A program made the translations under genes and the position numbers. A stretch of DNA of 64,000 nucleotides, taken from positions 7,124-71,123 of the forward strand of contig CALRFT010000002.1 of the NCBI GenBank assembly GCA_943356745.1, in the 5' to 3' direction. This stretch comes from Parcubacteria group bacterium (lineage in GTDB: Bacteria > Patescibacteriota > Minisyncoccia > Phycocordibacterales > CSBR16-119). Shown here in pieces: positions 2,152 to 18,816 of this stretch. The stretch's first letter is position 1. Each line of letters opens with the position of its first letter. Below the pieces are notes generated by a model. The model searched no databases and was not told the DNA's origin. It saw only the letters and a program-made list of their open reading frames with translations.

Positions 2152-2547
2152 ATGGAACGCACTGACGGTAATCTCACTATCACCCGCACAACAAAAGGCA
2201 AGCTTCCAAGCTTGCCTTTTTTGGCTGTAAAAAATCATATTCTCGGAAAAAAGTTTACTCTTTCTCTTGCTTTCATTGATTTACCAACAATGAAAAAACT
2301 CAGCAAAGAATACAAAGGTGACGACACTCATACAAACATCCTCACCTTCCCTCTTGATACACAAGAAGCCGAGATTCTTATGAATCTTCAAACTGTTCGA
2401 AGTGCCGCAAAACACTTTGACATGAAATACCAAGAACATCTTCTATTTCTTTTTATTCACGGATGCCTTCACCTGAAAGGATACAAACATGGACCTGAAA
2501 TGGAAGCTTTGGAAGAAAAACTTTTGGTAAAATTTTGGGAAAAATAA
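2152..2547 (+). CDS. ybeY: Endoribonuclease YbeY (rRNA maturation factor)
   Basis: Motif H-G-C-L-H-L-K-G-Y-K-H matches the YbeY zinc-binding signature HGxLHLxGYDH. Confidence 0.8.
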   Translation: MERTDGNLTITRTTKGKLPSLPFLAVKNHILGKKFTLSLAFIDLPTMKKLSKEYKGDDTHTNILTFPLDTQEAEILMNLQTVRSAAKHFDMKYQEHLLFLFIHGCLHLKGYKHGPEMEALEEKLLVKFWEK

Positions 2548-2664
2548 AAAGCCTCTTTGGAGGTTTTTTATTTTTCCCCTTATATAAAAAAAACTTTGTA
2601 GTACAATATCTATGTACTTTTTCAAGGAAATGTCTTTAATACATTTCTTTCTTTTATGTAGTAT

Positions 2665-3840
2665 ATGTCAAAAAATATTACAGTTGGTATTGATATTGGA
2701 AGTCACGAAACACGCGTGATGGTTGTTGAGTATGCAGATGATGGACAAAGAAAAACAACACGAATCATTGGGATGGGATCTTCTGAAACAAAAGGTGTTC
2801 GACATGGGTATGTAGTAAACCCGGAACAAGCATCTGAATCAATCCAAAAAGCAGTATCTCAAGCAGAGCATGCTTCAGGAATCAGAATAAAACAAGCTGT
2901 TATCTCAATCTCAGGAATCAGCCTCGCTTCTCACATTGGTACTGGATCTTCAATTATCTCAAAAGCAGATAACGAAGTAACTCATCTCGATATACAAAAA
3001 GCTCTCAACGACGCAGAAAGCAAACTTTCTGTTCCAAATAAGCAAATCATCGAAACTCTTGTTCTTGAATACAAACTCGATGCAAAACGTGTCTTTGGAC
3101 GTCCAGAAGGAATGAAAGGAATCAAACTTGATGTTACTGTTTTGTATGTAGCAGCTCTGAAGCAACATATTGACGATCTTATTCTTTCAGTTAACCAAGC
3201 AGGGGTTGATGTCATCGATGTTGTTCCGAGTCCTCTTGCTACAAGTTTTGTTACTCTTTCTGAAAAACAAAAAACTGCAGGTTGTATGCTTCTTGATATT
3301 GGTGCTGAAACAGTTTCCCTTACTGTTTTTGAAGATAACCAAATCATCTCACTTCATGTATTTACCATTGGATCAAATGACATAACAAACGACATCGCAC
3401 TTGGTCTCAAAATACCACTTCCAGAAGCTGAAGAAATAAAACAAGGTGTCTTGATTGGAAATGTTCCCCAAGGAGATGTTGAAACAATCATAGAAGCAAG
3501 ACTTACAGATATTTTTGAACTTGTTCAAAAATATCTCAAAAAGATTAAACGAGACGGACTCTTGCCTGCTGGAGTTGTTATAACAGGTGGAGGATCTCAA
3601 ATCCCAATCACTGAAACTCTCGCAAGAAAAATCCTGAATGTTCCCGCAAGTCTTGCTCGTATTCCAACAAATAGCAAGAAAAATCCTCTTCTTAAGGACA
3701 TGAGCTGGCTTGTCGTATATGGCCTTTGTATGTCAAAACGATACACAGCAAGTGGAAACACAAGCTACAACCCTGTTTCAAAAACACTTTCTCATATAGG
3801 ACAATTCTTCAAATCCATCATTAAGCAGTTGAAGCCGTAA
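2665..3840 (+). CDS. ftsA: Cell division protein FtsA
   Basis: Actin-like ATPase motifs: VGIDIGSHETRV, ISISG, VITGGGSQIP. Sits immediately upstream of ftsZ. Confidence 0.85.
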   Translation: MSKNITVGIDIGSHETRVMVVEYADDGQRKTTRIIGMGSSETKGVRHGYVVNPEQASESIQKAVSQAEHASGIRIKQAVISISGISLASHIGTGSSIISKADNEVTHLDIQKALNDAESKLSVPNKQIIETLVLEYKLDAKRVFGRPEGMKGIKLDVTVLYVAALKQHIDDLILSVNQAGVDVIDVVPSPLATSFVTLSEKQKTAGCMLLDIGAETVSLTVFEDNQIISLHVFTIGSNDITNDIALGLKIPLPEAEEIKQGVLIGNVPQGDVETIIEARLTDIFELVQKYLKKIKRDGLLPAGVVITGGGSQIPITETLARKILNVPASLARIPTNSKKNPLLKDMSWLVVYGLCMSKRYTASGNTSYNPVSKTLSHIGQFFKSIIKQLKP

Positions 3841-3979
3841 GTAGTCAATAAGGACAAGCCCTGAAAATATTGATACTATATAACCAGCTTTAATCGGTCA
3901 TTAACATTTAAAACAAAAGCTCTTTTTTGATAGAGCTTTTTGTTTTGATAAAGCAACTTAATTTATAAATATCACTATT

Positions 3980-5233
3980 ATGGCAAAAATTAATTCAGAC
4001 GTAGAAACTTTTGCACGCATCAAAGTTATCGGAATTGGTGGTTCAGGTGGAAATGCAATAAACCACATGATCACTCGTGGAGTACAAGGTGTTGAATTCA
4101 TTGCAATGAACACGGACGTGCAAGATCTTCACCACTCAAAAGCAGATAAGAAAATTCATCTTGGTAAAAATCTCACCAAGGGACTTGGTGCTGGAATGAA
4201 TCCAGAAATTGGACGAAAAGCAGCAGAAGAAACCCGATCAGAAATTCAAGATTTCGTAAAAGGATCAGATATGGTGTTTATCACAGCTGGAATGGGAGGA
4301 GGAACAGGAACAGGAGCTTCTCCAACTGTTGCGCGAGCTGCGAAAGAACAAGGGATTCTCACTGTTGCAGTTGTAACACGACCTTTCTTCTTTGAAGGTA
4401 ATCAACGACTTCGAATTGCGGATGAAGGTATCCGAGCACTTGAAAAAGAAGTTGATGCCATCATTACAATTCCAAACGACCGACTCCTTCAAATCACTGA
4501 AAAAAATACAAGCTTCAATGAAGCCTTTGAAATGGTAGATGAAATCTTGCGACAAGCAGTAGAAGGTATTTCTGATATCATTACAAACCCAGGAAAAATC
4601 AACGTGGACTTTGCAGATATCAAAGCAATCATGGCAGACGCAGGATCAGCACTCATGGGAATCGGATATGCAGCTGGAGAAGGCCGAGCAGAAAATGCAG
4701 CGCTTCAAGCAATCAATTCCCCACTTCTTGAAATCTCAATCAATGGAGCAAAAGGAGTTCTTTTCTCTGTTGCAGGAAGTGAAGATCTTGGAATCCAAGA
4801 AATTCAAGCGATTGCAAAAATCATTACTGAATCAATCGACAAAGACGCAAAAGTTATTTGGGGTAAAACTCAAGATGACAAACTCAAAAAAGGAGAAATC
4901 CGAGTTACTGTTATCGCAACAGGTTTTCCAAATAGCACACAAAGAAAATCTTTGTTTGGTGCTCAACAGCAACAACAAATGATGTCAGCAACGACTTCAC
5001 GACCAAAAGAAGAGACTCGAGAAGAAATGATTGTTGAAGAAGAGACACAAGAAAGAAAATCTCAAAGACGAGAAGAACCAAAAGAAATTCGAAACTCTAT
5101 CCCAAAGGTAGAAGATTTTGAAGAACTGAAAGTACCAGAAAAAGAACCTATTGAAATTGTCGACGGTGATGATTTTGAAGAGGATGACGAAGACTGGTCA
5201 GCGGTTCCAGCGTTTCTACGAAGAAAGAAATAA
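3980..5233 (+). CDS. ftsZ: Cell division GTPase FtsZ
   Basis: IGIGGSGGNAINHM start and the tubulin signature GGGTGTGASP. Acidic C-terminal tail. Confidence 0.95.
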   Translation: MAKINSDVETFARIKVIGIGGSGGNAINHMITRGVQGVEFIAMNTDVQDLHHSKADKKIHLGKNLTKGLGAGMNPEIGRKAAEETRSEIQDFVKGSDMVFITAGMGGGTGTGASPTVARAAKEQGILTVAVVTRPFFFEGNQRLRIADEGIRALEKEVDAIITIPNDRLLQITEKNTSFNEAFEMVDEILRQAVEGISDIITNPGKINVDFADIKAIMADAGSALMGIGYAAGEGRAENAALQAINSPLLEISINGAKGVLFSVAGSEDLGIQEIQAIAKIITESIDKDAKVIWGKTQDDKLKKGEIRVTVIATGFPNSTQRKSLFGAQQQQQMMSATTSRPKEETREEMIVEEETQERKSQRREEPKEIRNSIPKVEDFEELKVPEKEPIEIVDGDDFEEDDEDWSAVPAFLRRKK

Positions 5234-5244
5234 TTACTCACCCA

Positions 5245-5270
5245 AAAACCGCATGAATGTGCGGTTTTTG
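5245..5270 (+). terminator. Rho-independent terminator after ftsZ
   Basis: aaaaaccgcatgaatgtgcggttttt hairpin followed by a T-run. Confidence 0.6.
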
Positions 5271-5299
5271 ATTTACTTAATCATGTATAATACCAAAGT

Positions 5300-6370
5300 A
5301 TGCGAATAATAGAAGAAACAAAACTAGATTATCAGGATGTATTACTTCGTCCAAAACGAAGTACTCTCACATCTAGAAAAGATGTTGATCTTGAACGTGA
5401 GTTTACTTTTTACCATTCCCCAAAAACATGGAAAGGAATTCCAATCATGACAGCAAACATGGCAACCTGTGGAACTTTTGAAATGGCACAGGTTCTAGCT
5501 CCGTACAAAATGATTACAACATTTCACAAATACTACACTGTAGAACAATTTGAAGAGTTTTTCAAAAGTTTTAATAACCCAGATTATGTTGCCTATACAC
5601 TTGGAATTCGTGATGAAGATTTTGAAAAATTAAAAATAATGCAAGAAAAAGATTTATTGAAACATTTTTCTTTTATCTGTCTCGACGTTCCAAATGGATA
5701 TCTTCAAAAATTTTTAGACGCCATTAAAATGGTTCGTACAATCTGCAAGGAACATATTATCATTGCTGGAAATGTTGTTACAAATGAAATGGCAGAAGAA
5801 ATTATTCTCGCTGGAGCAGATATTGTGAAGGTTGGAATAGGTCCTGGTTCTGCTTGTACAACCCGAAGACAAACGGGTGTTGGATATCCACAACTTTCAG
5901 CTGTGATTGAGTGTGGTGACGCAGCACATGGAATGTCAAACTCTCAAGGGGTTGGACGAATCATTGCAGATGGAGGACAACAGTTCCCTTCTTGTGTAGC
6001 GAAAGCATTTTGTGGTGGTGCAGATTTCAATATGTTTGGATCAATGTTTTCTGGATTTGAAGAAAGTGGAGGAAATTTGATTGAAAAAGATGGAAAACAA
6101 TTCAAAGAATATTTTGGATCTTCTTCAAACAAAGCAATGGAAGAATTTTATGGGAAAAAAGATTCGCACCGAGCAAGTGAAGGGCGATACACACTCATTC
6201 CATTCAAAGGAAGTATTCATAATTTCATTCAAGACCTTCTTGGCTCACTTCGAAGTACTGGAACATATATCGGCGCACAATTTCTGAAAGAATTCCCCAA
6301 ACGAGCAACTTTTATTCGAGTAAACAGACAGCTCACAACCTATCTAGAAACTTTTGATACGGGAAAATAA
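5300..6370 (+). CDS. guaC: GMP reductase (IMPDH/GMPR family)
   Basis: N-terminus [23 protein letters not shown] matches the GuaC start. TIM-barrel IMPDH/GMPR motifs [19 protein letters not shown]. Confidence 0.7.
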
Positions 6371-6391
6371 GCCTCTCAAGAGACTTGACTC

Positions 6392-7330
6392 ATGTGCTAT
6401 AATACAAATATGACTTACGAATTAATCATTATCGGAGGTGGACCAGCAGGATGCTCTGCTGCTGTTTACGCTGCACGAAAAAAACTTAAAACCTTACTCA
6501 TCACCTCAGAATGGGGCGGGCAATCAATAGTTTCTGAAACAATCTACAACTGGATTGGAACACCTGAGATCTCAGGTCATGATCTTGCCGAAAGTTTCAA
6601 AAAACATGTTGAATACTATCAAGGAGAAGATCTAGAACTCAAAACTGGATCATATGTAGAAAAGGTAGAAAAAACAGCTGAAGGATTTAAGGTATCTCTT
6701 TCAAATGGAGAATCTTTTGAAACAAAAACAATTCTCATCTCTTCTGGATCAGGACGACGAAAACTTGAAGTAAAAGGTGCTGATGTTTTGGAACACAAAG
6801 GACTTACCTACTGCGCAACCTGTGACGGACCGCTATTTTCTGGACAAGATGTCGCTGTCATTGGTGGAGGAAATGCTGCCTTTGAAAGTGCTTCACAACT
6901 TGCTCAGTATTGCAAAAGTGTAACCATTATTCACCGAGGTTCTGAATGGAGAGCAGAAGCAGTAACGGTTGAAAAAATTCTTGCAAGACCAAATGTAAAA
7001 TCAATCATGAATGCAGACACAACAGAAGTCTATGGAGAAAAATTTGTTGCTGGAATGAAATATAAAGATAAGGAAGGAAATGAACATGATCTTCCCGTAA
7101 CAGGTATCTTTGTTGAAATTGGACAAATTCCAAATACTGGAATTGCAAGTGAGGTAGTTGAGCTTGATGACTACAAACGAATCAAAATCGACTACGCAAC
7201 CCAAAAGACCACCACTCCTGGAATTTGGGCTGCTGGAGATTGCACCAATGTCCTCTATCACCAAAACAACATCGCAGCTGGAGATGCAGTTCGAGCACTT
7301 GAGGATATATACAAATACTTACACGCATAG
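6392..7330 (+). CDS. trxB: Thioredoxin reductase. The likely true start is the MTYEL Met at 6410.
   Basis: FAD-binding motif IIGGGPAGCSAA and redox-active CATCDG. Confidence 0.85.
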   Translation: MCYNTNMTYELIIIGGGPAGCSAAVYAARKKLKTLLITSEWGGQSIVSETIYNWIGTPEISGHDLAESFKKHVEYYQGEDLELKTGSYVEKVEKTAEGFKVSLSNGESFETKTILISSGSGRRKLEVKGADVLEHKGLTYCATCDGPLFSGQDVAVIGGGNAAFESASQLAQYCKSVTIIHRGSEWRAEAVTVEKILARPNVKSIMNADTTEVYGEKFVAGMKYKDKEGNEHDLPVTGIFVEIGQIPNTGIASEVVELDDYKRIKIDYATQKTTTPGIWAAGDCTNVLYHQNNIAAGDAVRALEDIYKYLHA

Positions 7331-7796: not shown

Positions 7797-8486
7797 ATGT
7801 CTCAAAAACAACTACGTTTCTTAAGTGATGGAACTCTTTGTTCCCTTTTTTCTCAAGGTTCTGTTAAAAGAAAACCTCGAATTGATCCATTTCTTTTCTG
7901 TGAATTTATTAAAAAAGACCAGGTGATAATTTTTAAAAAAGAAAAGATTCGCAAATTTATCATGGGAACCCTAGCGGTAAGCATAGTGTTCTCTGTTGGA
8001 CTTTTTGTGTTCAATTTTATCGATGAAGGAATTCTGGGAGTTTGTCTAACAATGTCTTTTATCGGAAGCCTCATGGTACATTACCTTTTGTTTCCCAAAG
8101 AAGACAGGAATAAAAAAACAAACAAAGAATACAGGGAAGCATTTTTCTCAATTCTTGAAAAAGAACAAACTCTTACTGAAGTCGGACTGAAAGAAATCTT
8201 TTACAGCCTCATTAAGCGAATCCAATTTTTAATGATTGGAGAGAAGAAATCTTCAACAGAAAATTTAAATCGAATCAAAAACATTATCTACTGCATCAAC
8301 CAGACACACGAAGAGAGAGGTATTGTATTAAAAGTTCCGTCAAATTTTAGTGGTATTTGTTCCCAGCTAAAACAACTGTTTCCCCAAGATGCCGACATTG
8401 ATCAATTCATTCAACAGCAATCTTTTATCATTCCCCCTGGAGTTACAGTAGACAAAACCATTCACATTGAAGAAACTCTTGCGTAA
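7797..8486 (+). CDS. Hypothetical membrane protein
   Basis: 229 aa with predicted TM helices near the N-terminus. A terminator follows at 8494-8528. Confidence 0.35.
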   Translation: MSQKQLRFLSDGTLCSLFSQGSVKRKPRIDPFLFCEFIKKDQVIIFKKEKIRKFIMGTLAVSIVFSVGLFVFNFIDEGILGVCLTMSFIGSLMVHYLLFPKEDRNKKTNKEYREAFFSILEKEQTLTEVGLKEIFYSLIKRIQFLMIGEKKSSTENLNRIKNIIYCINQTHEERGIVLKVPSNFSGICSQLKQLFPQDADIDQFIQQQSFIIPPGVTVDKTIHIEETLA

Positions 8487-10006: not shown

Positions 10007-10537
10007 CTAGCATAAAAACCCACAAATCGAAAACACCTCGCAAGAGGTGTTTTTGATTTGTATAGCCATACGTTCACGAACCCCTTTCAAAAACATATCA
10101 GGATTATTTTTAATTTCTTTTTTTAGCTCTTCTTCCGTAAACCACCTTATTTCAGCGACCTCATCTTCTTGTATTGTAAAATCATTAAATCCAGAAGGTA
10201 ATGTTAACAAAAATTCCTGACTAAAATATTGATACTTTGTACTAACTCTTCTCTTCTTTCCAAGAATAGGCTTTATGTTTACAAGTCCTAATTCTTCTTG
10301 AGACTCTTTTATAATATTTTCTTCATAAGTTTCATTTTCTTCAACAGTTCCCGCAACTGCTGGTCCCCATTTACCTGGATCATGTTTTTTATGAAGTGCC
10401 CGTTTTGCAAGTAATATTTTTCCATCGGTATCAGTGATCCACAAGTAAGAAACACGGTAGATAGAATTCTCATCACGACCGTCTCTTTCTTTGTAATCTA
10501 TAATGTTGTCATTTTCATCAACTATCGGTATTTTCAT
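10007..10537 (-). CDS. NUDIX hydrolase
   Basis: Nudix box GTVEENETYEENIIKESQEELGL (Gx5Ex7REuxEExGu). The last ~15 codons are encoded by a palindromic terminator hairpin. Confidence 0.75.
   Translation of the reverse strand: MKIPIVDENDNIIDYKERDGRDENSIYRVSYLWITDTDGKILLAKRALHKKHDPGKWGPAVAGTVEENETYEENIIKESQEELGLVNIKPILGKKRRVSTKYQYFSQEFLLTLPSGFNDFTIQEDEVAEIRWFTEEELKKEIKNNPDMFLKGVRERMAIQIKNTSCEVFSICGFLC
10012..10051. terminator. Palindromic bidirectional terminator-like hairpin (copy 1)
   Basis: acaaatcgaaaacacctc-gcaa-gaggtgtttttgatttgt. ~18 bp stem with A/T runs on both sides. Confidence 0.5.
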
Positions 10538-10685
10538 GTTTAAATATTATCACAAAAACAGCTCCGAAAGGAGCTGTTTTGTATGCTTCTCGTGCTAGCA
10601 CGAAATGGTGACCCCTCTCCGAGGACTGCGTTTTACATACAATCGCTTTGCTCTTGTGTAAAACGGGAGCCTCCGGTACCCTCCG

Positions 10686-10733
10686 GGTCACAAATCAAAA
10701 ACACCTCTTGCGAGGTGTTTTTGATTTGTGACC
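10686..10733. terminator. Palindromic bidirectional terminator-like hairpin (copy 2, near-identical to 10012-10051)
   Basis: ggtcacaaatcaaaaacacctc-ttgc-gaggtgtttttgatttgtgacc. Perfect 22 bp stem. Confidence 0.5.
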
Positions 10734-10842
10734 CCAAGACCTGGATTTCAGAACTTGTTAAGGAAAGTTTAACAATAAAATCCAGCATAAGCGATCTCCA
10801 AGGTATCTTTGTGAATAGCCCCTATAATTTAGCTAGGCAAAG

Positions 10843-11493
10843 TTAATCTTTTTGCTTTCCGATCAGTTTTGCAAATGATCTTGCAATTGGTTCACCTAGA
10901 TGAACCACAAATAAACCGTCAATAGAAAGCTCCTCTTTTATGTCCCAAAAGAAACGCTCGATCCTTTTAGTTATTCTTCTCAGATATCTTGGGTCAAATT
11001 GTACAGGTCTATTAATCTGCATATGACCATTCTCATGGATGTTTAGTTTGGTATTAAAGTGAGCAACCTGGTTACCTCTGGCTCGAACAAGAGGATTGAT
11101 GCTGAGTTTTATGGCTTTCAATCTTTTTAGATATCTATTCTTAATCTTTACATCTTGTATATGATCTACCAGTGTAAAAAGAGAGGATGTTTGCTTATCT
11201 TCATCTAATATATTTCCCAAAATGATGATGGCATCACGAGAATAAACATCCCATAAAGAAATGACAAATGTGGTTGTAATCTTAGGATTGGAGTCTTTGA
11301 CGATAAAATCGTCCTTGTGTTTAGCTAGATACTGCAGTAACTCAGCATGATCAAGCAATCGACTTGTACTACTAAAAATATAATCTGTTATATTTCTTAG
11401 CTTTCTTTCTTCACTTATTGTTACCTTTTTCTTTTGGCTCATATTAATTAGTTGGAATAAGTTTATCAGTCCAAGACTTCTTATCTTCCTCAT
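10843..11493 (-). CDS. Uncharacterised protein co-operonic with the Gabija-like pair. Has an R-x5-H motif (possible HEPN-like RNase). The likely true start is the Met at 11442.
   Basis: The ATG at 11442 lies 1 nt after the upstream helicase stop (TAA-T-ATG). Motif VRARGNQVAHF is at 11059-11079. No recognisable family otherwise. Confidence 0.5.
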   Translation of the reverse strand: MRKIRSLGLINLFQLINMSQKKKVTISEERKLRNITDYIFSSTSRLLDHAELLQYLAKHKDDFIVKDSNPKITTTFVISLWDVYSRDAIIILGNILDEDKQTSSLFTLVDHIQDVKIKNRYLKRLKAIKLSINPLVRARGNQVAHFNTKLNIHENGHMQINRPVQFDPRYLRRITKRIERFFWDIKEELSIDGLFVVHLGEPIARSFAKLIGKQKD

Positions 11494-13168
11494 CAGGTAC
11501 TGCGATTACTAGAACTTTGCTCGGTCGAGAGATTGCTACATACACATTCCTCAACTCCTCATCCTGAGACACGCTACTAGTTTCAAGAAGAGTTTTATAG
11601 TTTTTAGAAACTTTCTTCTTCAGGAATAGTAGGACAGCTTCGAATGTTTCTCCTTTGACTTTATGAATGGTGCTTAATCTATAGTCACGCTGAATATTGT
11701 CCGTGTATTCTTGGGGAAATACACGAGAAAATTCGAGTTCTTTTGCCTCTGTGTTGTATGTGAAAGTGATAGGAATTTCAATTGATTTGAGCTGTTCACT
11801 GGCTGATTGAAGCCAAGCGCCTAGTTTAATATTTGTAAGCGGAAGAACTGCGAGTATAGCCTTGATTTCTTTTCTGAACTCAACAAAACCACGTTCATCA
11901 TGGAAATCATCCAAATCTTTTTCCGAGCAATAGTGTGCTTTCTTTAGAAATTTAAAGTAGCCCTTTTCTATATACTTTATTCCTCGATTGTAATCTTTGT
12001 TGTCTATGAGAAACTTGCCGATAGCAAAATCTCTTGCATAAGGACAACTATTTAACCAAGGCTTAATTTCTACGGTAAATGTGCCAGGAATAAAAAATCC
12101 TTTCGATCTAGCTAAGACTACAGTGGTTTTGGGTGTAATTTCTATGTCATTGGCTTTACATTTCTCTATAAAGTTCTTTACGATATCTTTTGTTTGTCCG
12201 TCAGTGTATGTGATAACCTCTGGCATACATTCAAAGTCCTTTACATCAACATTCGTTGCCAATATCTTGTTATCTCCCAATGAAGACAGGTTGTATACGG
12301 CATTACAAATTTTTTCTGAACTTCTCCAACTTTCATCAAGCACAATAGAGTTATCTTTCCAAAGTACTTGCTTCTCGATGAAAAGCTCTGGCTTTGCATT
12401 ATTCCATTCGAAGATTGCTTGATCAGGATCACCAACTAGCATTACATTTTGATCTGCATTTTCCGCTATTAATAATTCGATTATCTTCATTTGTATGTCG
12501 GTCGTATCCTGTGCCTCATCGACAATTAACCAAGGAAACTTCGAGGCAAGACTTTTTCTTACTGCGGGATATTTTTCAAGAATGACCATTGCGAAATAGT
12601 TTGCATCTGACTGAGTTGCGTAACCTTTCTTAGTAAACGCATCTTTCATCTGCTTCAATTTGAGATAGTTCTTATTTTCATCTCCGCCCTGGTTTAGTTT
12701 CGGCGGGAACGCTCCATGAAAATACTTTCTTTCTTTTCCATAAAGATCGCCATTTATTTCGTAACTTACTTTGTCAAAATAGTAAGGTGCGTCCTGGTCA
12801 TTCATACCCAGTCCCCATACACCATATGGTTCTCCAACCATAACGGGTCTTTGGTCGCAACCTAATACTAAATGCCCAAATGGAAGAAAGATGAATTTAT
12901 TTATAAAGCTATCAATTGTTCCGAGAAAGTGAGGGTAAGATACTTTTGTATTAAAATCTTCAGCACACTTCTTTTCGATTTCTTGCCAAGCAGTGTTAGT
13001 AAAAGAGATCGTGGCAATCCCTTGGTGTGGCAAAGTCCAATTTGAAATTAGCTTTGAAAGCTTTGCTGAAACACAGTATGTCTTTCCGCTCCCAGGACAG
13101 GCACGAACGACAAATTTACCCGTTCTATCGAGGACAACTTTTTGTTTGGTTGATAATTTCTCATACAT
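11444..13168 (-). CDS. gajB: UvrD/PcrA-like SF1 DNA helicase (Gabija GajB-like)
   Basis: Walker A ACPGSGKT, motif II LIVDEAQD, motif III VGDPDQAIFEW, motif V IHKVKGETFE, motif VI VYVAISRP. The start overlaps the stop of the upstream OLD-family gene. Confidence 0.8.
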   Translation of the reverse strand: MYEKLSTKQKVVLDRTGKFVVRACPGSGKTYCVSAKLSKLISNWTLPHQGIATISFTNTAWQEIEKKCAEDFNTKVSYPHFLGTIDSFINKFIFLPFGHLVLGCDQRPVMVGEPYGVWGLGMNDQDAPYYFDKVSYEINGDLYGKERKYFHGAFPPKLNQGGDENKNYLKLKQMKDAFTKKGYATQSDANYFAMVILEKYPAVRKSLASKFPWLIVDEAQDTTDIQMKIIELLIAENADQNVMLVGDPDQAIFEWNNAKPELFIEKQVLWKDNSIVLDESWRSSEKICNAVYNLSSLGDNKILATNVDVKDFECMPEVITYTDGQTKDIVKNFIEKCKANDIEITPKTTVVLARSKGFFIPGTFTVEIKPWLNSCPYARDFAIGKFLIDNKDYNRGIKYIEKGYFKFLKKAHYCSEKDLDDFHDERGFVEFRKEIKAILAVLPLTNIKLGAWLQSASEQLKSIEIPITFTYNTEAKELEFSRVFPQEYTDNIQRDYRLSTIHKVKGETFEAVLLFLKKKVSKNYKTLLETSSVSQDEELRNVYVAISRPSKVLVIAVPDEEDKKSWTDKLIPTN

Positions 13169-13171
13169 AGA

Positions 13172-14926
13172 TTATTCATTTTTTACAGCATACTTTATGG
13201 CATCCTGAATATAAGTTGGAATAACAAAATTTGTCAGAGCACCCGCATCTTCTTCAAGTCGAATTGATAACCGATGCGCCAACTCTGATTTGCCCTGCTG
13301 GTCTGCCACTTTTTTAGCAAAGTTTTTTGCATATGTCGGAATGTCAGCGTCCACAGTAATGGTAGTTTTTGGATGAAATTCTTTATATATCTCTAAAAGA
13401 ATTTGTCTGTTGAAATCACTTGCCAAGAATAGTTCGTATTCAAAAGTGACTGCACCAACGAAGACTTTCAGTAAGTTATTTTCCATTGCCTTTATCTTTG
13501 TTGCCCTTGGTGATCCATCGTCATCGTCCTTTGTTCTATCGTCATCAGTGATAATCGAACATCTATTTTTAAGACCTTTTTCTGGTTTTGCAGAATTGTA
13601 TAACTTTGCAAAATGTTCAAACGCAATTCCGTTTATATTTACAATTTCACAACCTGCTTTCTCCACATCGTAATCCGCACCCATTTTTCTACTAAAAACT
13701 GGAAGAAGTAGGGCTTCAGAAATACCCTCTACAAATATGACGCTATTTGCAAAGAATAACTGTGACTTCGTAACATCTAAGAACTTGTGCAGAAATTTTT
13801 TATTCGCTTCGTCTAGGTCTGAGTTTCTTAATGAAAGTGCAGATATTTCACCAGCTTGATGTTGCAAAACGTTGATTGAATTTAAATCTGCCTTAGCAGT
13901 AATTGTTGGAGAGTGTGAAGAAACAAAAATCTGAAAGTCCTTGTCTGTAGCAAGTTCATTTAGGTAGTTAAAAAATAGGTCTTGGAGCTGAGGATGGAGG
14001 TGAGCTTCTGGTTCTTCAATCAAGAGAGAAAAGTACGCTTCTGGTTCAATCTCTTTTTTCTGTTTTATGTCACCTAAAACTGTGGCTATATAAATCAAGT
14101 TATTATAACCAAGACCGTTTTGCCAAATGCTTAAATATTTCTGTTCATTCGATGGATCGAGTTTAAGTACTTCTTCTGAAAAGAATGGTAACTGAACATG
14201 TAAATTATTTAAGATATCACCAAATTCTAGTCCGCTAAAAGTAACCTCAATCTCTTGCTTCTTATCAAGAAAGGTTGTTCTGCCAAGATGCTCGTTTACT
14301 TTTTCCTTACCCTTAGTAATAAAATCTTTCCATTTGTCACCTTTAAGTACGGTTCTGACCTCTGTTGCTAAAGCTTGCTTCTCAGCTTCAGTATGAGATT
14401 GTGTATCACCGTACAAACGAGCCAATTTGCTATCTCTAAATGGTTTCAAAAATTGTTCTGCGTCACGTAGGGCATCGAGATGAACATAATTTATGAGCTG
14501 TAAAATTTCTGTAGAGATTTGCTGTCCCTCATTTGTTCCGCCCCAGACTTTGTATTTCAGTTTATTTTTCTCATCAAGGTAGTATTTTAAATGAAGCTGT
14601 AAATCTGCCTTATCGTTCTCATCTATAGCCAATAGCTCTCTGTATATAACAGGCTCGAGATCATCTTCTATTTCAAAATGCAGATCAAAAATCGTTTCAT
14701 TCTTTGCATCTTTAGGATCAGACTTGTTTATGTAAAAATCACATTCCTTTGAGAAGTAAATATCTCTCCTGATACTTCCGTATCCAAGGCAAAGTCGTAA
14801 GGCATCAATGATTGCAGTTTTACCTGCATTGTTTTCTCCAATAAGAATATTTAACCCCTTGTTAAAATCTAAGGAGAGTTCTTTGATTGATCTAAATCTA
14901 TTAATTTTTAGTTCTTTTATATACAT
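13172..14926 (-). CDS. gajA: OLD-family ABC ATPase plus TOPRIM nuclease (Gabija GajA-like / class 2 OLD)
   Basis: N-terminus IKELKINRFRSIKELSLDFNKGLNILIGENNAGKTAIIDAL (Walker A). LLIEEPEAHLHPQLQ (Walker B/H-loop typical of OLD/GajA). C-terminal TOPRIM motifs VIFVEGISE and IITDDD. Confidence 0.85.
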   Translation of the reverse strand: MYIKELKINRFRSIKELSLDFNKGLNILIGENNAGKTAIIDALRLCLGYGSIRRDIYFSKECDFYINKSDPKDAKNETIFDLHFEIEDDLEPVIYRELLAIDENDKADLQLHLKYYLDEKNKLKYKVWGGTNEGQQISTEILQLINYVHLDALRDAEQFLKPFRDSKLARLYGDTQSHTEAEKQALATEVRTVLKGDKWKDFITKGKEKVNEHLGRTTFLDKKQEIEVTFSGLEFGDILNNLHVQLPFFSEEVLKLDPSNEQKYLSIWQNGLGYNNLIYIATVLGDIKQKKEIEPEAYFSLLIEEPEAHLHPQLQDLFFNYLNELATDKDFQIFVSSHSPTITAKADLNSINVLQHQAGEISALSLRNSDLDEANKKFLHKFLDVTKSQLFFANSVIFVEGISEALLLPVFSRKMGADYDVEKAGCEIVNINGIAFEHFAKLYNSAKPEKGLKNRCSIITDDDRTKDDDDGSPRATKIKAMENNLLKVFVGAVTFEYELFLASDFNRQILLEIYKEFHPKTTITVDADIPTYAKNFAKKVADQQGKSELAHRLSIRLEEDAGALTNFVIPTYIQDAIKYAVKNE

Positions 14927-15010
14927 GCATCTTCAAGCCCAACCGTTGAGGTTAGTAATCGCATTTTAACATCTTTGGAGCATAAAAGCCTATCCTCCAA
15001 TTCATTTTTT

Positions 15011-15233
15011 TGCTAGAATGAGATTACAGTTGAATACAGTCGCCTAACCCTTGGCATCGAAAACCAAGGCATGGCGCAAAACCCGCTAAAGTGTAAAAAC
15101 CTCCTCGTCAGGAGTCACTTTAGCGGTCATACCTGGAAACGGGTATGGGTTCAGCCGAAAGGTTGGATCGCAACTGGCGAGGAGATTTTTGCATCTTCTC
15201 GGATTATTAGTCTCATAAAAACCGCTAAAGTTT
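15011..15233 (+). ncRNA. GC-rich structured 5' leader (candidate cis-regulatory RNA or riboswitch-like element) upstream of the 141-aa ORF
   Basis: Extended -10-like TGCTAGAAT at 15011-15019. Nested hairpins: ccttgg...ccaagg; ccgctaaagtg...cactttagcgg enclosing ctcct-cgtc-aggag; cagcc-gaaa-ggttg. A third copy of ccgctaaagt at 15222-15231 abuts the start codon and gives mutually exclusive pairing. Confidence 0.4.
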
Positions 15234-15659
15234 ATGAATACAAATATCTCTTCCTGGAGTACGGGAAGAAAGTTAGTCGTTTTTTTATTAGTTCCCATCT
15301 TCATCATCGTTGTCATAGGAATGGCAAACAGTCCAACTCCTGCTTCTGTTCCCAAGACGGCAGAAGAGATCGCATACCAGAAGAAACATGACTTTGCTTC
15401 ACTGGCGAAGATGAATGTCGAGATGACGCTCAAAGCTCCCTCTACAGCGAAGTTCAACACTTCACCAGTAGTGAAAGAAGAGAATGGTATCTACTCGATC
15501 AGCTCTTGGGTTGATAGTGAAAATAGCTACGGTGCAATGATCCGAAGTCAGTGGTCAGTAAAGGCTCATTACATCGGAGGGGACACTGAAGATGAGATCG
15601 GGACAGGTGCAAACTGGATCATCGATGAGTTCATTTTTGATGGGAAAAAGGTGAAATAA
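15234..15659 (+). CDS. Hypothetical small exported or membrane-anchored protein (island cargo)
   Basis: 141 aa with an N-terminal hydrophobic helix (LVVFLLVPIFIIVVIGMA). No recognisable domain. Confidence 0.5.
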   Translation: MNTNISSWSTGRKLVVFLLVPIFIIVVIGMANSPTPASVPKTAEEIAYQKKHDFASLAKMNVEMTLKAPSTAKFNTSPVVKEENGIYSISSWVDSENSYGAMIRSQWSVKAHYIGGDTEDEIGTGANWIIDEFIFDGKKVK

Positions 15660-15660
15660 G

Positions 15661-15900
15661 TGCAAGTACATTAACAGTGCTGAAAACAGTGCTAGAGGGT
15701 GAAAAACAGGCGAAAAAACACGCAAAACGGTAAGTAATGGATTTGGACAAAAACAGTGGAAAAAACAGTGAAAACGGCATCAAAAACACAGTCTCGAAAT
15801 GTGCATTAACAGCGACAAAAACAGCGACAGACTCTCTAGATTGATTTGACCAAAAACAGCGTGGAAACAGTGTGAGAAGCATCAATTTAGGGGTCTAAAA
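15661..15900. repeat. Iteron-like array: at least 10 copies of AAAACAG(T/C)G and close variants in ~240 bp
   Basis: aaaacagtgcta, aaaacaggcg, aaaacagtgg, aaaacagtgaaaacgg, aaaacacagtc, taacagcgac, aaaacagcgac, aaaacagcgtgg, aaacagtgtgag. Located directly upstream of the 232-aa ORF. Confidence 0.55.
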
Positions 15901-15916
15901 TGCTAGTATAAAGATT

Positions 15917-16615
15917 ATGGATTTAAGGACATCATTACAAGTTATTAACCGTGACAATATCTCAGATATTGAGAAGTTTTTAGCGTATGTACTTGATGCC
16001 TCTACTCAGGAACTTAAAGAAGCTCAGAAGAGAACTTTAGCGATCGTATACCACAGACTGTGGTGGTATCGAGATCAGGAGATCAAACGCTTTTTCCCAA
16101 AGACAGAGAAGTTTCAGGAGTATGTACCGTTTGTGTTTTCAGATCACAAGCTAACTGCTGAGCAGGATTTAAAAAACTTATTACTGAACAATAAAGATCG
16201 ATTTGGAAATCCAGACTACCCAGCTCTATTAAAGTTATTTAAATCGGATATCTCTGAGACCCTATCTTTCTTCACAAGCAAAGAAAACAGAACTGTAGAG
16301 GGTACACAGCTAATTCTTCGTTACAACAATTATGGAAAGTTTTGGCATGGAGACATAACAAAATCTTGCTATCCCATCAATTCTAAAAGTAAGCGGTTCA
16401 AGTTACTAAGGTATCTAATTGAAAACGAGGGCTTTCAGGACACTAAGGATATCTTGGCTTCTGTGGGTGGCAAAGATACACACTCTATTCGTACTGCAGT
16501 TAAAGAGATGAGATTGCTTATAGAGAAAAAACTTGATTTAGACGATGTTATTCTCTCTAATCCACCCGATGGATATGCTCTAAATCCTAAATATAAAGTT
16601 GTTTTTGAGAAGTAG
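15917..16615 (+). CDS. Hypothetical protein with a C-terminal winged-helix-like segment. Possible replication initiator or regulator of the island.
   Basis: 232 aa. C-terminal KRFKLLRYLIENEGFQDTKDILASVGG...IRTAVKEMR resembles a wHTH. Preceded by the iteron-like array. Confidence 0.4.
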   Translation: MDLRTSLQVINRDNISDIEKFLAYVLDASTQELKEAQKRTLAIVYHRLWWYRDQEIKRFFPKTEKFQEYVPFVFSDHKLTAEQDLKNLLLNNKDRFGNPDYPALLKLFKSDISETLSFFTSKENRTVEGTQLILRYNNYGKFWHGDITKSCYPINSKSKRFKLLRYLIENEGFQDTKDILASVGGKDTHSIRTAVKEMRLLIEKKLDLDDVILSNPPDGYALNPKYKVVFEK

Positions 16616-16730
16616 CTCTTTCGTAGTGTTGATATCTGTATTTGTTCCTTATTAAATAAACGTTTTCTGATGCAAAAAGCTACCCGAGCCTCATGGACGA
16701 ACTACGGGGTCAGGTTGGTATCGTTCGACT

Positions 16731-16916
16731 ATGGAAGTCGAGCAACTATTCTCAAAAGAAGAAATACAGAACATTTCCGATCTTGGGAATGTGCTACGGG
16801 AGATACGCTCCAGGCTTAAACGTGAGGGTGTCTCAATAGATGAAGCTCGCAAAAAGTTACGAGCCACACGAAAAAGAACTTATGCCTCAAAACAAAGACA
16901 AAAACAATCCGCATAA
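16731..16916 (+). CDS. Small basic protein upstream of and overlapping the recombinase gene. Possible DNA-binding protein or recombination directionality factor.
   Basis: 61 aa, K/R-rich C-terminus. Its position relative to the serine recombinase gene. Confidence 0.25.
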   Translation: MEVEQLFSKEEIQNISDLGNVLREIRSRLKREGVSIDEARKKLRATRKRTYASKQRQKQSA

Positions 16917-18552
16917 AAATGAGTATCTGATCTACTCACGTAAGAGTACGGACGATGCTATTAATCAAAAGAACTCCATTTCCTATCAAGTAGTGGAGGC
17001 ACTTAAATATGCAAAGCATGAGAGACTGCCGATTGCGAAAGTTGATATTGAGGGATTTTGTACAGAGGGCATTATCCGTGAAAGACATACGGCATTTAAA
17101 GAAGACGATAATCTTAATTTTAGTGATGATGGATATATAAAATATCGTATACAAAGACCCAAGTTTAAACGCCTAGTCGATGCTCTGGTTAAAGGAGAAT
17201 ACAAAGGCGTAATTTTTTTATGTTGGGATCGTGCCAGTCGCAACAAGAGTGATAACAGTGTTATTTCAAAGATGATAAATCTTGGAGTTGATGTACTATT
17301 TGTTCAGGCGACATACGAAAAAACTAGCTCTGGTGGTCTTCATATGAATATCGATGGTGTCTTCTCTGAGCATTACTCACTGGTGATTAGAGAGAAAGTA
17401 ACGAACACGAGAAAGAAAATGAGAGACGAGGGTATCTGCACTTACAAAGCCCCGATAGGATATTTAAATAATGGCGATCCTCGCCACAAGCCTTTTGACC
17501 CAGATCGTTCACCACTCGTAAAACAACTTTTTGAAAAATACGCTGAGGGAAATTGGACACTTGCTGATCTTGCACGTTGGGCTAATGAGAACGGTTTGAT
17601 CACTGTACCTGCTCGTCGAAAGAGAACGGAGCAGGAAATGTTGATGGACGATGAGGTTACAATAGATGCGGTCTCTCGTCCTATGACGTTTAATCATATC
17701 CATAAGATATTAACTAACCAGTTCTATATAGGTAAAGTATTAGGAAACGAAAACCAATGGGTGAAAAGTGTTAGTCATGCCCCGCTTGTTGATGAAGATT
17801 TATTTTATAGAGTTCAGGGATTGCTCCGTTCAAAGAAAGTTAGTGTCCACTACAAAACCAAGCCTTATTTCGCCTACAGAGGGCTTGTACGGTGTGGAGA
17901 GTGCCACAGAGTGTATTCGCCTTACATGCAGAAAGGTATAGCGTATTATGGCGCACGATGCATTCTTGGCTGTAAGAATAAGAACCGTAATATAAACGCT
18001 AATTTCATTGAGGAGAAAGTGGGATCAAAGCTATTTAACCTCAATTTCACTAAAGAAGAATTGGCTGATATCGATCGTCAGACCAGAGGTGAAGTTGCTA
18101 CTCTCGATGATAAGCGCAGGGGGCGTTTAAATGTTATTGATCAAGAGAAACGAAAGCTTCGAGATGATCTATCGTACTTACGCAACAATAAATTGTCTCT
18201 GCTTAAAAATCAGGTCTATAGCCATGAAGAATATCTTGAACAAGAGAGTGACATTGCTTCTAAACTTCAAAAGCTGAGGAATGAAGAAGAAGCATCGGAT
18301 GTTTCGATGCAAGAAGTCATTAGAGATGTGGTTCTACTTTCCGAACTCCTAGAAGACGCTTATTTGTATTACTCTTTGGCAAATCCAACAGAAAAGCAAC
18401 AAATAATAACGAAAGTCTTTTCCGAACTTACATTATTTGGTAAAACCCTTGATTACCAATGTAAAAACGGTTTTAAAGTCTTCGAGAAGAAGAAAAATAT
18501 CTTGTGTGACCCTACGGAGAATCGAACTCCGATTTCCAGGATGAAAACCTGA
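16840..18552 (+). CDS. Large serine recombinase (integrase)
   Basis: Catalytic motif LIYSRKSTDDAINQKNSISYQ (YxRxST...SxxxQ). RPKFKRLVDALVKGEYKGVIFLCWDRASRN (DRLSR-like). Recombinase domain, zinc ribbon CGECHRV...CILGC and a C-terminal coiled coil. The last ~15 codons are encoded by the tRNA-Glu 3' half. Confidence 0.85.
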   Translation: MKLAKSYEPHEKELMPQNKDKNNPHKNEYLIYSRKSTDDAINQKNSISYQVVEALKYAKHERLPIAKVDIEGFCTEGIIRERHTAFKEDDNLNFSDDGYIKYRIQRPKFKRLVDALVKGEYKGVIFLCWDRASRNKSDNSVISKMINLGVDVLFVQATYEKTSSGGLHMNIDGVFSEHYSLVIREKVTNTRKKMRDEGICTYKAPIGYLNNGDPRHKPFDPDRSPLVKQLFEKYAEGNWTLADLARWANENGLITVPARRKRTEQEMLMDDEVTIDAVSRPMTFNHIHKILTNQFYIGKVLGNENQWVKSVSHAPLVDEDLFYRVQGLLRSKKVSVHYKTKPYFAYRGLVRCGECHRVYSPYMQKGIAYYGARCILGCKNKNRNINANFIEEKVGSKLFNLNFTKEELADIDRQTRGEVATLDDKRRGRLNVIDQEKRKLRDDLSYLRNNKLSLLKNQVYSHEEYLEQESDIASKLQKLRNEEEASDVSMQEVIRDVVLLSELLEDAYLYYSLANPTEKQQIITKVFSELTLFGKTLDYQCKNGFKVFEKKKNILCDPTENRTPISRMKT

Positions 18553-18578
18553 TGTCCTAACCGTTAGACGATAGGGCC
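18507..18578 (-). tRNA. tRNA-Glu (anticodon TTC)
   Basis: Cloverleaf GGCCCTA-TC-GTCT-AACGGTT-AGGAC-A-TCAGG-TTTTCAT-CCTGG-AAAT-CGGAG-TTCGATT-CTCCG-TAGGGTC-A. Anticodon loop TTTTCAT. T-loop GTTCGATTC. Confidence 0.8.
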
Positions 18579-18624
18579 AATATAACTTGTGACTTTCCAG
18601 AAATTTTGTTATTTTCAGGTTTTT

Positions 18625-18671
18625 GAAAACCTGATGTCCGCTTATCATCTTTCTGGTTAGACGATAGGGCC
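18625..18671 (-). pseudogene. Partial tandem copy of the tRNA-Glu 5' half (acceptor 5' strand to anticodon stem) with an altered D-loop
   Basis: gaaaacctgatgtcc...ggttagacgatagggcc matches 18543-18578 but carries a 15-nt replacement in the D-loop region. No T-arm or 3' acceptor strand. Confidence 0.5.
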
Positions 18672-18816
18672 TTAAAAATCAATCCAAGATTGACGAAAAA
18701 TAGTATAGCATATTTTATAGGCTTTGCAAGATAAAAATACTTTAGTTTTTCCATTAATTCACTAGAAAAACAAAGACTAGTCAATACTAGCTGTTTTTGC
18801 TACAATCGTCCCGTAT

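Follow-up and report, generated by a model that had tools for sequence, protein, structure and literature searches.

In the Gabija system of Bacillus cereus VD045, the gene for an OLD-family protein with ABC ATPase and TOPRIM domains (GajA) is followed by that for a UvrD/PcrA/Rep-like superfamily 1 (SF1) helicase (GajB) (PMC10781630, PMC10822852, PMC10568477). The two proteins form a GajA4:GajB4 complex with nucleotide-inhibited DNA-nicking activity, GajB hydrolyses (d)ATP/(d)GTP (PMC10781630, PMC10822852, bioRxiv 10.1101/2023.05.02.539174), and class 2 OLD proteins carry a TOPRIM domain with a class-specific helical insert (PMC10568477). AbiU2-type HEPN genes are known from comparative genomics to sit, as solo genes, in restriction-modification (R-M) operons and other defence operons (PMC3710099, PMC3632139). 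We analysed a 64-kb stretch of contig CALRFT010000002.1 (hereafter the window) from a Parcubacteria group bacterium, a member of the candidate phyla radiation (CPR), in which gajA, gajB and an HEPN gene lie next to each other within an element integrated at a tRNA-Glu gene (Table 1). The reading that we favour, with a probability of about 60%, is that this serine-recombinase element carries two stacked defence modules as cargo, namely a Gabija system and a solo HEPN gene. Gabija, AbiU2-type HEPN genes and serine-recombinase islands are each already known, and it is the host that is unusual. A literature search found no description of a Gabija-HEPN operon, nor of Gabija on CPR mobile elements.

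Judged from its sequence, the gajA-gajB pair is a canonical two-gene Gabija, or class 2 OLD, system, an assignment based on full-length PADLOC matches, Pfam and Protein Data Bank (PDB) matches and intact catalytic motifs. The protein of 584 amino acids (aa) matched the PADLOC GajA model (PDLC00091) from residue 1 to 583, end to end on a 627-position profile (E=3.7e-157), and the 574-aa protein gave a full-length match to GajB (PDLC00138, residues 1-571, E=6.3e-179). Pfam identified AAA_15 (E=1.5e-34) and OLD-like_TOPRIM (PF20469, E=7e-14, residues 391-463) in GajA, and UvrD-helicase (E=2.8e-31) in GajB. Among PDB sequences, GajA matched the T. scotoductus OLD protein (TsOLD, 6p74, E=8e-14) and the Toprim of the class 2 B. 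pseudomallei protein BpOLD (6nk8, E=2e-8); GajB matched the B. cereus GajB entries 8jqb and 8j4t, together with Rep, UvrD and PcrA. The ATPase motifs of GajA are a Walker A GENNAGKT at residues 30-37 and a Walker B/H-loop LLIEEPEAHLHP at 301-312, and its TOPRIM motifs are VIFVEGISE at 396-404, with the acidic E, and IITDDD at 458-463 (DDD at 461-463). Motifs I to VI of GajB are represented by ACPGSGKT (23-30), LIVDEAQD (214-221), VGDPDQAIF (245-253), ESWRSS (279-284), TIHKVKGETF (500-509) and VAISRPS (544-550). An original prediction, made from the letters alone, had listed both open reading frames (ORFs) and a third downstream, quoted these motifs and proposed a Gabija or class 2 OLD pair with a TOPRIM domain in the 584-aa protein, and on all of these points it was borne out. 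It was mistaken in having the gajB start overlap the gajA stop, since the stop codon (13172-13174) and the gajB ATG (13166-13168) leave a gap of 3 nt (TAA TCT ATG).

The pair shares its gene order and domain composition with B. cereus Gabija but is only distantly related to it in sequence: GajB matched the PDB GajB entries at an E-value of about 1e-12, and GajA had no match to PDB GajA at 1e-5. It differs also in lying in a CPR genome, on a serine-recombinase element, with a co-oriented HEPN gene 1 nt downstream. A tblastn search of plasmids with GajB returned only relatives below 30% identity, which were of no use for context.

The longest ORF of the third gene spans 10843-11493 on the minus strand, but its supported start is the ATG at 11442, 1 nt past the gajB stop (TAA-T-ATG), where the original prediction had the ORF begin. 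All 47 homologues are about 197-203 aa long and start at the equivalent M-x-KKK, which rules out the upstream ATG at 11493, and a separate gene call on the source contig also gave a protein of 199 aa. A chance ORF is likewise ruled out by ratios of nonsynonymous to synonymous substitution rates (dN/dS) of 0.11 and 0.07, indicating purifying selection.

We assign the third protein, as a prediction from sequence and modelled structure, to a divergent AbiU2-family HEPN with a putative RNase function, because of Pfam matches within its family, distant profile matches, an invariant pair of catalytic-type residues and a helical model. The Pfam profile HEPN_AbiU2 (PF18734) was matched by 29 of the 48 family members at E≤0.01 (best 2e-6). 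When the family profile was run against 1.84 billion representatives it recovered 18 proteins only, and five of its distant matches exceed the HEPN_AbiU2 cut-off (29.5-49.9 bits). Within the segment R122-G-N-Q-V-A-H128, an R-x5-H form of the HEPN R-x4-6-H motif, R122 and H128 are invariant in all 48 sequences, down to 39% identity, and N124 is conserved in at least 90% of them. The AlphaFold model is an all-helical bundle with a predicted local distance difference test (pLDDT) score of 86.8. As far as these sequences indicate, the family is a small, CPR-restricted, divergent branch.

Other searches with this protein gave nothing. A Foldseek comparison of the model with the PDB had no significant match, the family profile met nothing meaningful among PDB sequences, no model in PADLOC, NCBIfam or PHROGs matched the protein, and an IMG/VR scan for the family found no match. 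Neither in the window nor in the fetched loci does the HEPN gene have a nucleotidyltransferase-domain gene as a neighbour, and an HEPN-MNT toxin-antitoxin pair is thereby ruled out. With AbiU2 of the Lactococcus lactis AbiU system, the protein shares the profile relationship to PF18734, the R-x5-H motif and a size of about 200 aa, but the window has no gene for the AbiU1 (ParB/AIPR) partner.

The HEPN gene could be a genuine third component of Gabija, its product being a functional partner of GajAB, either as an RNase effector that the GajAB complex activates or as a guard. In the guard form, HEPN would fire once Gabija is blocked by a phage inhibitor (a Gad1-like protein, for example), by analogy with PrrC guarding EcoprrI. 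The HEPN anticodon nucleases PrrC (with EcoprrI) and RloC are alike in concept, as latent HEPN RNases attached to a DNA-level defence, but they have an ATPase domain of their own and a demonstrated R-M partnership, whereas the window protein is a bare HEPN domain for which a partnership would be conjectural. Among about 16 distinct genomic contexts that we retrieved for the family (loci carrying L numbers), Gabija lies upstream of HEPN only in the window, in L024 (96% identity) and in L036 (86%). The family is otherwise found behind at least 13 unrelated modules without Gabija. It follows a type III R-M operon in L001, Panacea-domain toxin-antitoxin (TA)-like modules in L025, L027 and L010, a DUF3800-like gene in L020 and an AbiV-type HEPN in L022; it lies within a decayed island of R-M, UvrD-like and OLD-like DUF4435 ATPase genes in L003, adjoins a diversity-generating retroelement (DGR) in the L004 family and sits beside methyltransferase (MTase)/ParB-like genes in L017-19. 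Conversely, the nearest Gabija relatives, with GajB proteins at 71% (L037) and 58% identity (L038, a Parcubacteria metagenome-assembled genome), belong to two-gene GajA-GajB systems without HEPN. The slot after gajB in L037 holds a 103-aa GIY-YIG nuclease-domain gene (E=1.5e-6), and its gajA is preceded by a recombinase remnant and a tRNA-Asn. In L036 an rve-family transposase gene of an IS3-like insertion sequence (IS) replaces the 5' half of gajB, yet the 3' part of gajB, the TAATATG junction and the HEPN gene are all intact. The same 1-nt stop-start junction also separates an unrelated 146-aa gene from the HEPN gene in L027.

On the loci compared, the HEPN-Gabija association appears to be a feature of one shallow clade (three contigs). 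We therefore regard HEPN as a portable solo module, since it is Gabija-linked in this clade only, occurs in many other contexts and is absent from two-gene Gabija relatives, and this behaviour agrees with what comparative genomics had described for HEPN genes of the AbiU2 type within R-M operons (PMC3710099). The original prediction called the third gene unusual for Gabija; the two-gene relatives support this, but the gene is not specific to Gabija, and the 'three-gene cassette' is better read as two stacked modules.

Several observations nevertheless weigh against two independent modules or against an RNase in the second. The gajB-HEPN junction ccaactaattaatATG is identical in the window, L024 and L036 despite a synonymous divergence (dS) of about 1 in the HEPN gene. 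The gajA-gajB-HEPN block is intact in L024, where the downstream sequence is a different one from 4 nt past the stop codon onwards, and this cohesion could reflect selection for the trio. Together with the shared strand, the absence of any promoter-like or terminator-like site between the genes and the proposal that HEPN-R-M pairings act as layered defence (PMC3710099), these findings favour a three-component Gabija. Set against the varied contexts, the HEPN-free relatives, the intact HEPN gene in L036 and the junction in L027, they leave that explanation distinctly unlikely. For the HEPN protein itself, the window sequence scored 19.2 bits against PF18734, below the cut-off of 26.8, and lactococcal AbiU2 was non-toxic in E. 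coli (PMC3985639), so that RNase toxicity is not to be assumed. The protein might instead have an HEPN fold but be regulatory or lack catalysis, for instance modulating the defence operon upstream of it. This reading would suit the sub-threshold score and the generic nature of the fold evidence, and lactococcal abiU2, which reportedly modulates rather than confers AbiU resistance, would fit it too. We consider it very improbable, as R122, H128 and N124 are invariant or nearly so in the 48 sequences, which is expected of a catalytic site.

The original prediction placed these genes in an apparent integrative island at tRNA-Glu in a CPR-like genome, and the borders of that island can now be set to the base pair, with a serine recombinase and a tRNA-Glu gene flanking the cluster. 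The recombinase contains the Pfam domains Resolvase (PF00239) and Recombinase (PF07508) and matches the phrog_95 integrase (E=2.8e-54); an IMG/VR scan for it found no match. As integrated, its ORF enters the antisense strand of tRNA-Glu at TGTGACCC, reading ...NILCDP and then TENRTPISRMKT up to a stop codon. Just past the HEPN stop, a second TGTGACCC marks the plus-strand start of a detached fragment that reads ...CDP and then KTWISELVKESLTIKSSISDLQGIFVNSPYNLARQS up to a stop; this fragment is convergent with the HEPN gene, the two ORFs overlapping by 4 nt at their stop codons. We joined the two parts in silico (16840-18512 + 10727-10846), searched with the product and compared the best 120 (P0048-P0167) of more than 500 homologues. 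Joining the ends restored the C-terminus of intact homologues, with up to 16/27 identities to P0084. Sixty-two of these 120 end with a WxSE tail (DPxxW[LI]SEL...IKxSIxDL), and a further 48 (about 40%) end with a translation of antisense tRNA (DPTGNRTPI...CPNR) and would thus have been caught in the integrated, split state. Because the split ORF, rejoined across the cores, matches the tails of intact homologues, attP is placed inside the 3' end of the recombinase gene. By this sequence comparison, integration into the last 8 nt of tRNA-Glu split the recombinase gene, and the two cores delimit an element of about 7.8 kb.

Downstream of the HEPN gene, L001, L003, L004 and L015-18 have this peptide-coding fragment as well, its end reading GGGGTCAC on the HEPN strand; L004, L015 and L016 are identical up to the distal att core and unrelated past it. 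Serine codons in the detached fragment alternate between TCN and AGY among loci, indicating a coding constraint at the protein level. These switches, and the match to intact recombinase C-termini, identify the sequence downstream of HEPN as coding on the opposite strand, and rule it out as a non-coding RNA, an RNA antitoxin or a tRNA relic; Rfam gave spurious miRNA-type matches to the hairpin only. The junction of the circular form is predicted to be AAAAATATCTTGTGTGACCCCAAGACCTGGATTTC at attP and the empty attB site to be GGTGTTTTTGATTTGTGACCCTACGGAGAATCGAAC. In the circle, the restored recombinase gene would converge on the HEPN gene, with an overlap of 4 nt. The perfect 23-bp hairpin at the distal core is probably the tRNA terminator; in the empty site as predicted, it would come directly after the tRNA-Glu 3' end.

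SSV1-type integrases, which belong to the tyrosine family and are found in archaeal viruses, have attP inside the integrase gene, and their integration into tRNA genes splits that gene. The arrangement in the window is similar in that attP lies in the recombinase ORF, the 3' end is detached on integration and the tRNA is left intact. It differs in involving a large serine recombinase of CPR bacteria, from which only the last 38 codons are detached; 16 antisense-tRNA codons replace them, and the catalytic and DNA-binding domains stay together.

Recombinases 66-69% identical to that of the window (L029, L033-35) are likewise fused to antisense tRNA-Glu, and in L033 the detached recombinase tail lies at the far end of the element. 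The cargo of these elements is entirely different and includes no HEPN gene of the window family. The Gabija genes are therefore accessory cargo and not fixed at this locus, in line with the accessory status first suggested for them. The lack of HEPN in the elements of the closest recombinase relatives (L029-L035) also rules out HEPN as an obligate backbone gene.

The position of the HEPN gene at the element border suggests that it might instead serve to stabilise the element, as an addiction toxin whose RNase activity kills or arrests cells that lose the element and whose antidote could be a small ORF or RNA. The HEPN gene lies immediately against the att core and the detached 3' end of the recombinase gene in 8 of the approximately 16 contexts, L025 and L027 have Panacea antitoxin-domain genes in the vicinity, and small ORFs at the HEPN start could be antitoxins. 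However, the window contains no small ORF or other antitoxin candidate, that position being filled by gajB; the elements of the closest recombinase relatives lack the HEPN gene; and lactococcal AbiU2 alone is not toxic (PMC3985639). We consider an addiction role unlikely. The small ORFs are of about 57 aa in L001, L003 and L011 (..W[TS]xEE+xxIVGxFxxLLKVDxRxNPHLYE..), where they overlap the HEPN start codon in another frame and have no Pfam match, with a 79-aa analogue in L010/L025. The window is without the 57-aa ORF, and gajB ends in that same frame. Where present, the ORF may encode a partner or antitoxin of HEPN.

In our preferred model of two stacked modules, a large serine recombinase would have inserted the 7.8-kb element into the 3' end of tRNA-Glu of a CPR (Parcubacteria-like) genome, with a cargo that forms one leftward transcription unit of two separable defence modules. 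By homology, the first would be a GajA4:GajB4 complex that cuts phage DNA as nucleotide pools fall. The second, a bare 199-aa HEPN, would be a latent RNase providing an RNA-level second layer of the abortive-infection type. The HEPN gene would travel solo, typically as the last gene of whichever defence operon precedes the att end, and here would have landed directly behind gajB, where it is probably co-transcribed and translated by re-initiation. Co-transcription of gajA-gajB-HEPN and termination-reinitiation are likely in view of the 3-nt and 1-nt spacers, the lack of a promoter or terminator between the genes and the lack of a recognisable Shine-Dalgarno sequence before either gajB or the HEPN gene. 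We infer the RNase activity of HEPN, its anti-phage role and its independence from GajAB.

Table 1. Coordinates of the element, its cargo and other features in the window and in related loci
Feature	Locus	Position	Strand	Size	Remarks
gajA	Window	13172-14926	-	584 aa	Class 2 OLD-family; N-terminal ABC ATPase, C-terminal OLD-type TOPRIM
gajB	Window	11444-13168	-	574 aa	UvrD/PcrA/Rep-like SF1 helicase
HEPN gene	Window	10843-11442	-	199 aa	Divergent AbiU2-family HEPN, predicted RNase
Integrated element	Window	10727-18512		~7.8 kb
Large serine recombinase gene	Window	16840-18552	+	570 aa as integrated	Last 16 codons are antisense tRNA-Glu
Detached 3' end of recombinase gene	Window	10727-10846	+	Last 38 codons	CDP, then KTWISELVKESLTIKSSISDLQGIFVNSPYNLARQS and stop
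Distal att core	Window	10727-10734		8 bp	TGTGACCC
tRNA-proximal att core	Window	18505-18512			TGTGACCC; tRNA-Glu 3' end on minus strand
tRNA-Glu(UUC), intact target	Window	18506-18578	-		ARAGORN; Rfam tRNA 61.1 bits
Perfect hairpin	Window	10685-10734		23 bp	Arm includes att core
LOOT RNA (Rfam RF03000)	Window	15041-15169	+		84.1 bits; gathering threshold 46.4
LOOT RNA	L029	8188-8310
LOOT RNA	L033	5523-5647
LOOT RNA	L034	8578-8702
LOOT RNA	L035	6164-6288
LOOT RNA	L001	2552-2668
ORF with N-terminal hydrophobic segment	Window	15234-15659	+	141 aa	Phage-related; phrog_13160, E=6e-14
Iteron-like AAAACAG[TC]G repeats	Window	15666-15870		At least 10 copies	Between 141-aa ORF and 232-aa gene
Element backbone gene upstream of recombinase	Window	15917-16615	+	232 aa	Weak C-terminal winged-helix; Trans_reg_C, E=6.7e-4
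Small ORF overlapping HEPN start	L001	~7890-8060		~57 aa
Small ORF overlapping HEPN start	L003	~7960-8130		~57 aa
Small ORF overlapping HEPN start	L011	~900-1075		~57 aa
Small ORF overlapping HEPN start	L010/L025	L025 7826-8065		79 aa
GIY-YIG gene in slot after gajB	L037	9770-10081		103 aa
rve-family (IS3-like) transposase gene	L036	1-575			Replaces 5' half of gajB
Second att-like site / tRNA relics	Window	10577-10621 and 18624-18672
Hairpin sequence, copy at att core	Window	10689-10729		41 nt
Hairpin sequence, copy at Nudix ORF	Window	10021-10061		41 nt
Nudix ORF	Window	10007-10537
YbeY-FtsA-FtsZ-(IMPDH)-TrxB block	Window	2152-7330
YbeY-FtsA-FtsZ-(IMPDH)-TrxB block	L001	12280-16177
YbeY-FtsA-FtsZ-(IMPDH)-TrxB block	L003	10644-14632
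YbeY-FtsA-FtsZ-(IMPDH)-TrxB block	L033	12563-18089
Leucyl-tRNA synthetase ORF	Window	31945-34875	-	976 aa	NUDIX domain at 401-518

The part of the element between gajA and the recombinase gene contains an RNA and further genes. A LOOT RNA points away from gajA, in the same direction as the recombinase-side genes. Copies scoring 76-87 bits occur in every intact fetched tRNA-Glu element of this recombinase family, co-oriented with the recombinase and 1.3-1.7 kb upstream of it. L001, in which we saw no recombinase gene, has a further copy, and all six copies lie 55-65 nt before the next ORF; the remaining HEPN loci without a recombinase have no LOOT RNA. This distribution suggests that LOOT RNA belongs to the backbone of these CPR mobile elements or serves them as a leader RNA. 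The 141-aa ORF is called as a 112-aa gene in L028, and the 232-aa protein is homologous to a 216-aa protein upstream of the L029 recombinase (E=3.7e-16). The iteron-like repeats between these two genes may serve the element as operator or origin.

The surroundings of the element contain traces of further insertions. A second att-like site (GGGGTCAC followed by CATTTCGTGCTAGC...) is 95% identical to the flank that follows HEPN in the Nomurabacteria locus L001 and is adjoined by a degenerate tRNA 3' end, and immediately upstream of the true tRNA-Glu gene there is a pseudo 5' half of tRNA-Glu. These are probably scars of earlier integrations at a hotspot. Two copies of a 41-nt hairpin sequence are present, one at the att core and the other at a Nudix ORF, where it overlaps the 3' end of the ORF and encodes its last codons. 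In four different CPR genomes, the defence or element locus has a YbeY-FtsA-FtsZ-(IMPDH)-TrxB block no more than a few kb away, which suggests a conserved integration and defence hotspot beside division genes. The original prediction described defence systems as sparse in such a reduced genome; the remainder of the 64-kb window is housekeeping, but the related CPR loci are full of defence genes. Elsewhere in the window, the leucyl-tRNA synthetase ORF carries a NUDIX domain (E=6e-12) after the editing domain.

In conclusion, our analysis places a complete Gabija system among the mobile cargo of a CPR bacterium and traces its delivery route base by base, through a tRNA-Glu-targeting serine-recombinase element with attP inside its own recombinase gene. 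It also calls for caution in reading defence operons, as a tightly abutting downstream gene is not necessarily a component of the upstream system and here appears to be a portable HEPN module. For the orphan LOOT RNA, the backbone of these elements provides a genomic setting in which its function can be tested. If HEPN were a third component of Gabija, a system that nicks DNA would gain an abortive arm that degrades RNA, licensed by GajAB or by the inhibition of GajAB through phage anti-Gabija proteins, and this HEPN 'plug-in' may then act as a portable guard module for type III R-M and other first-line systems of CPR bacteria. A bare HEPN that plugs into Gabija, R-M and other systems would offer a simple model for layered or guard-type immunity.

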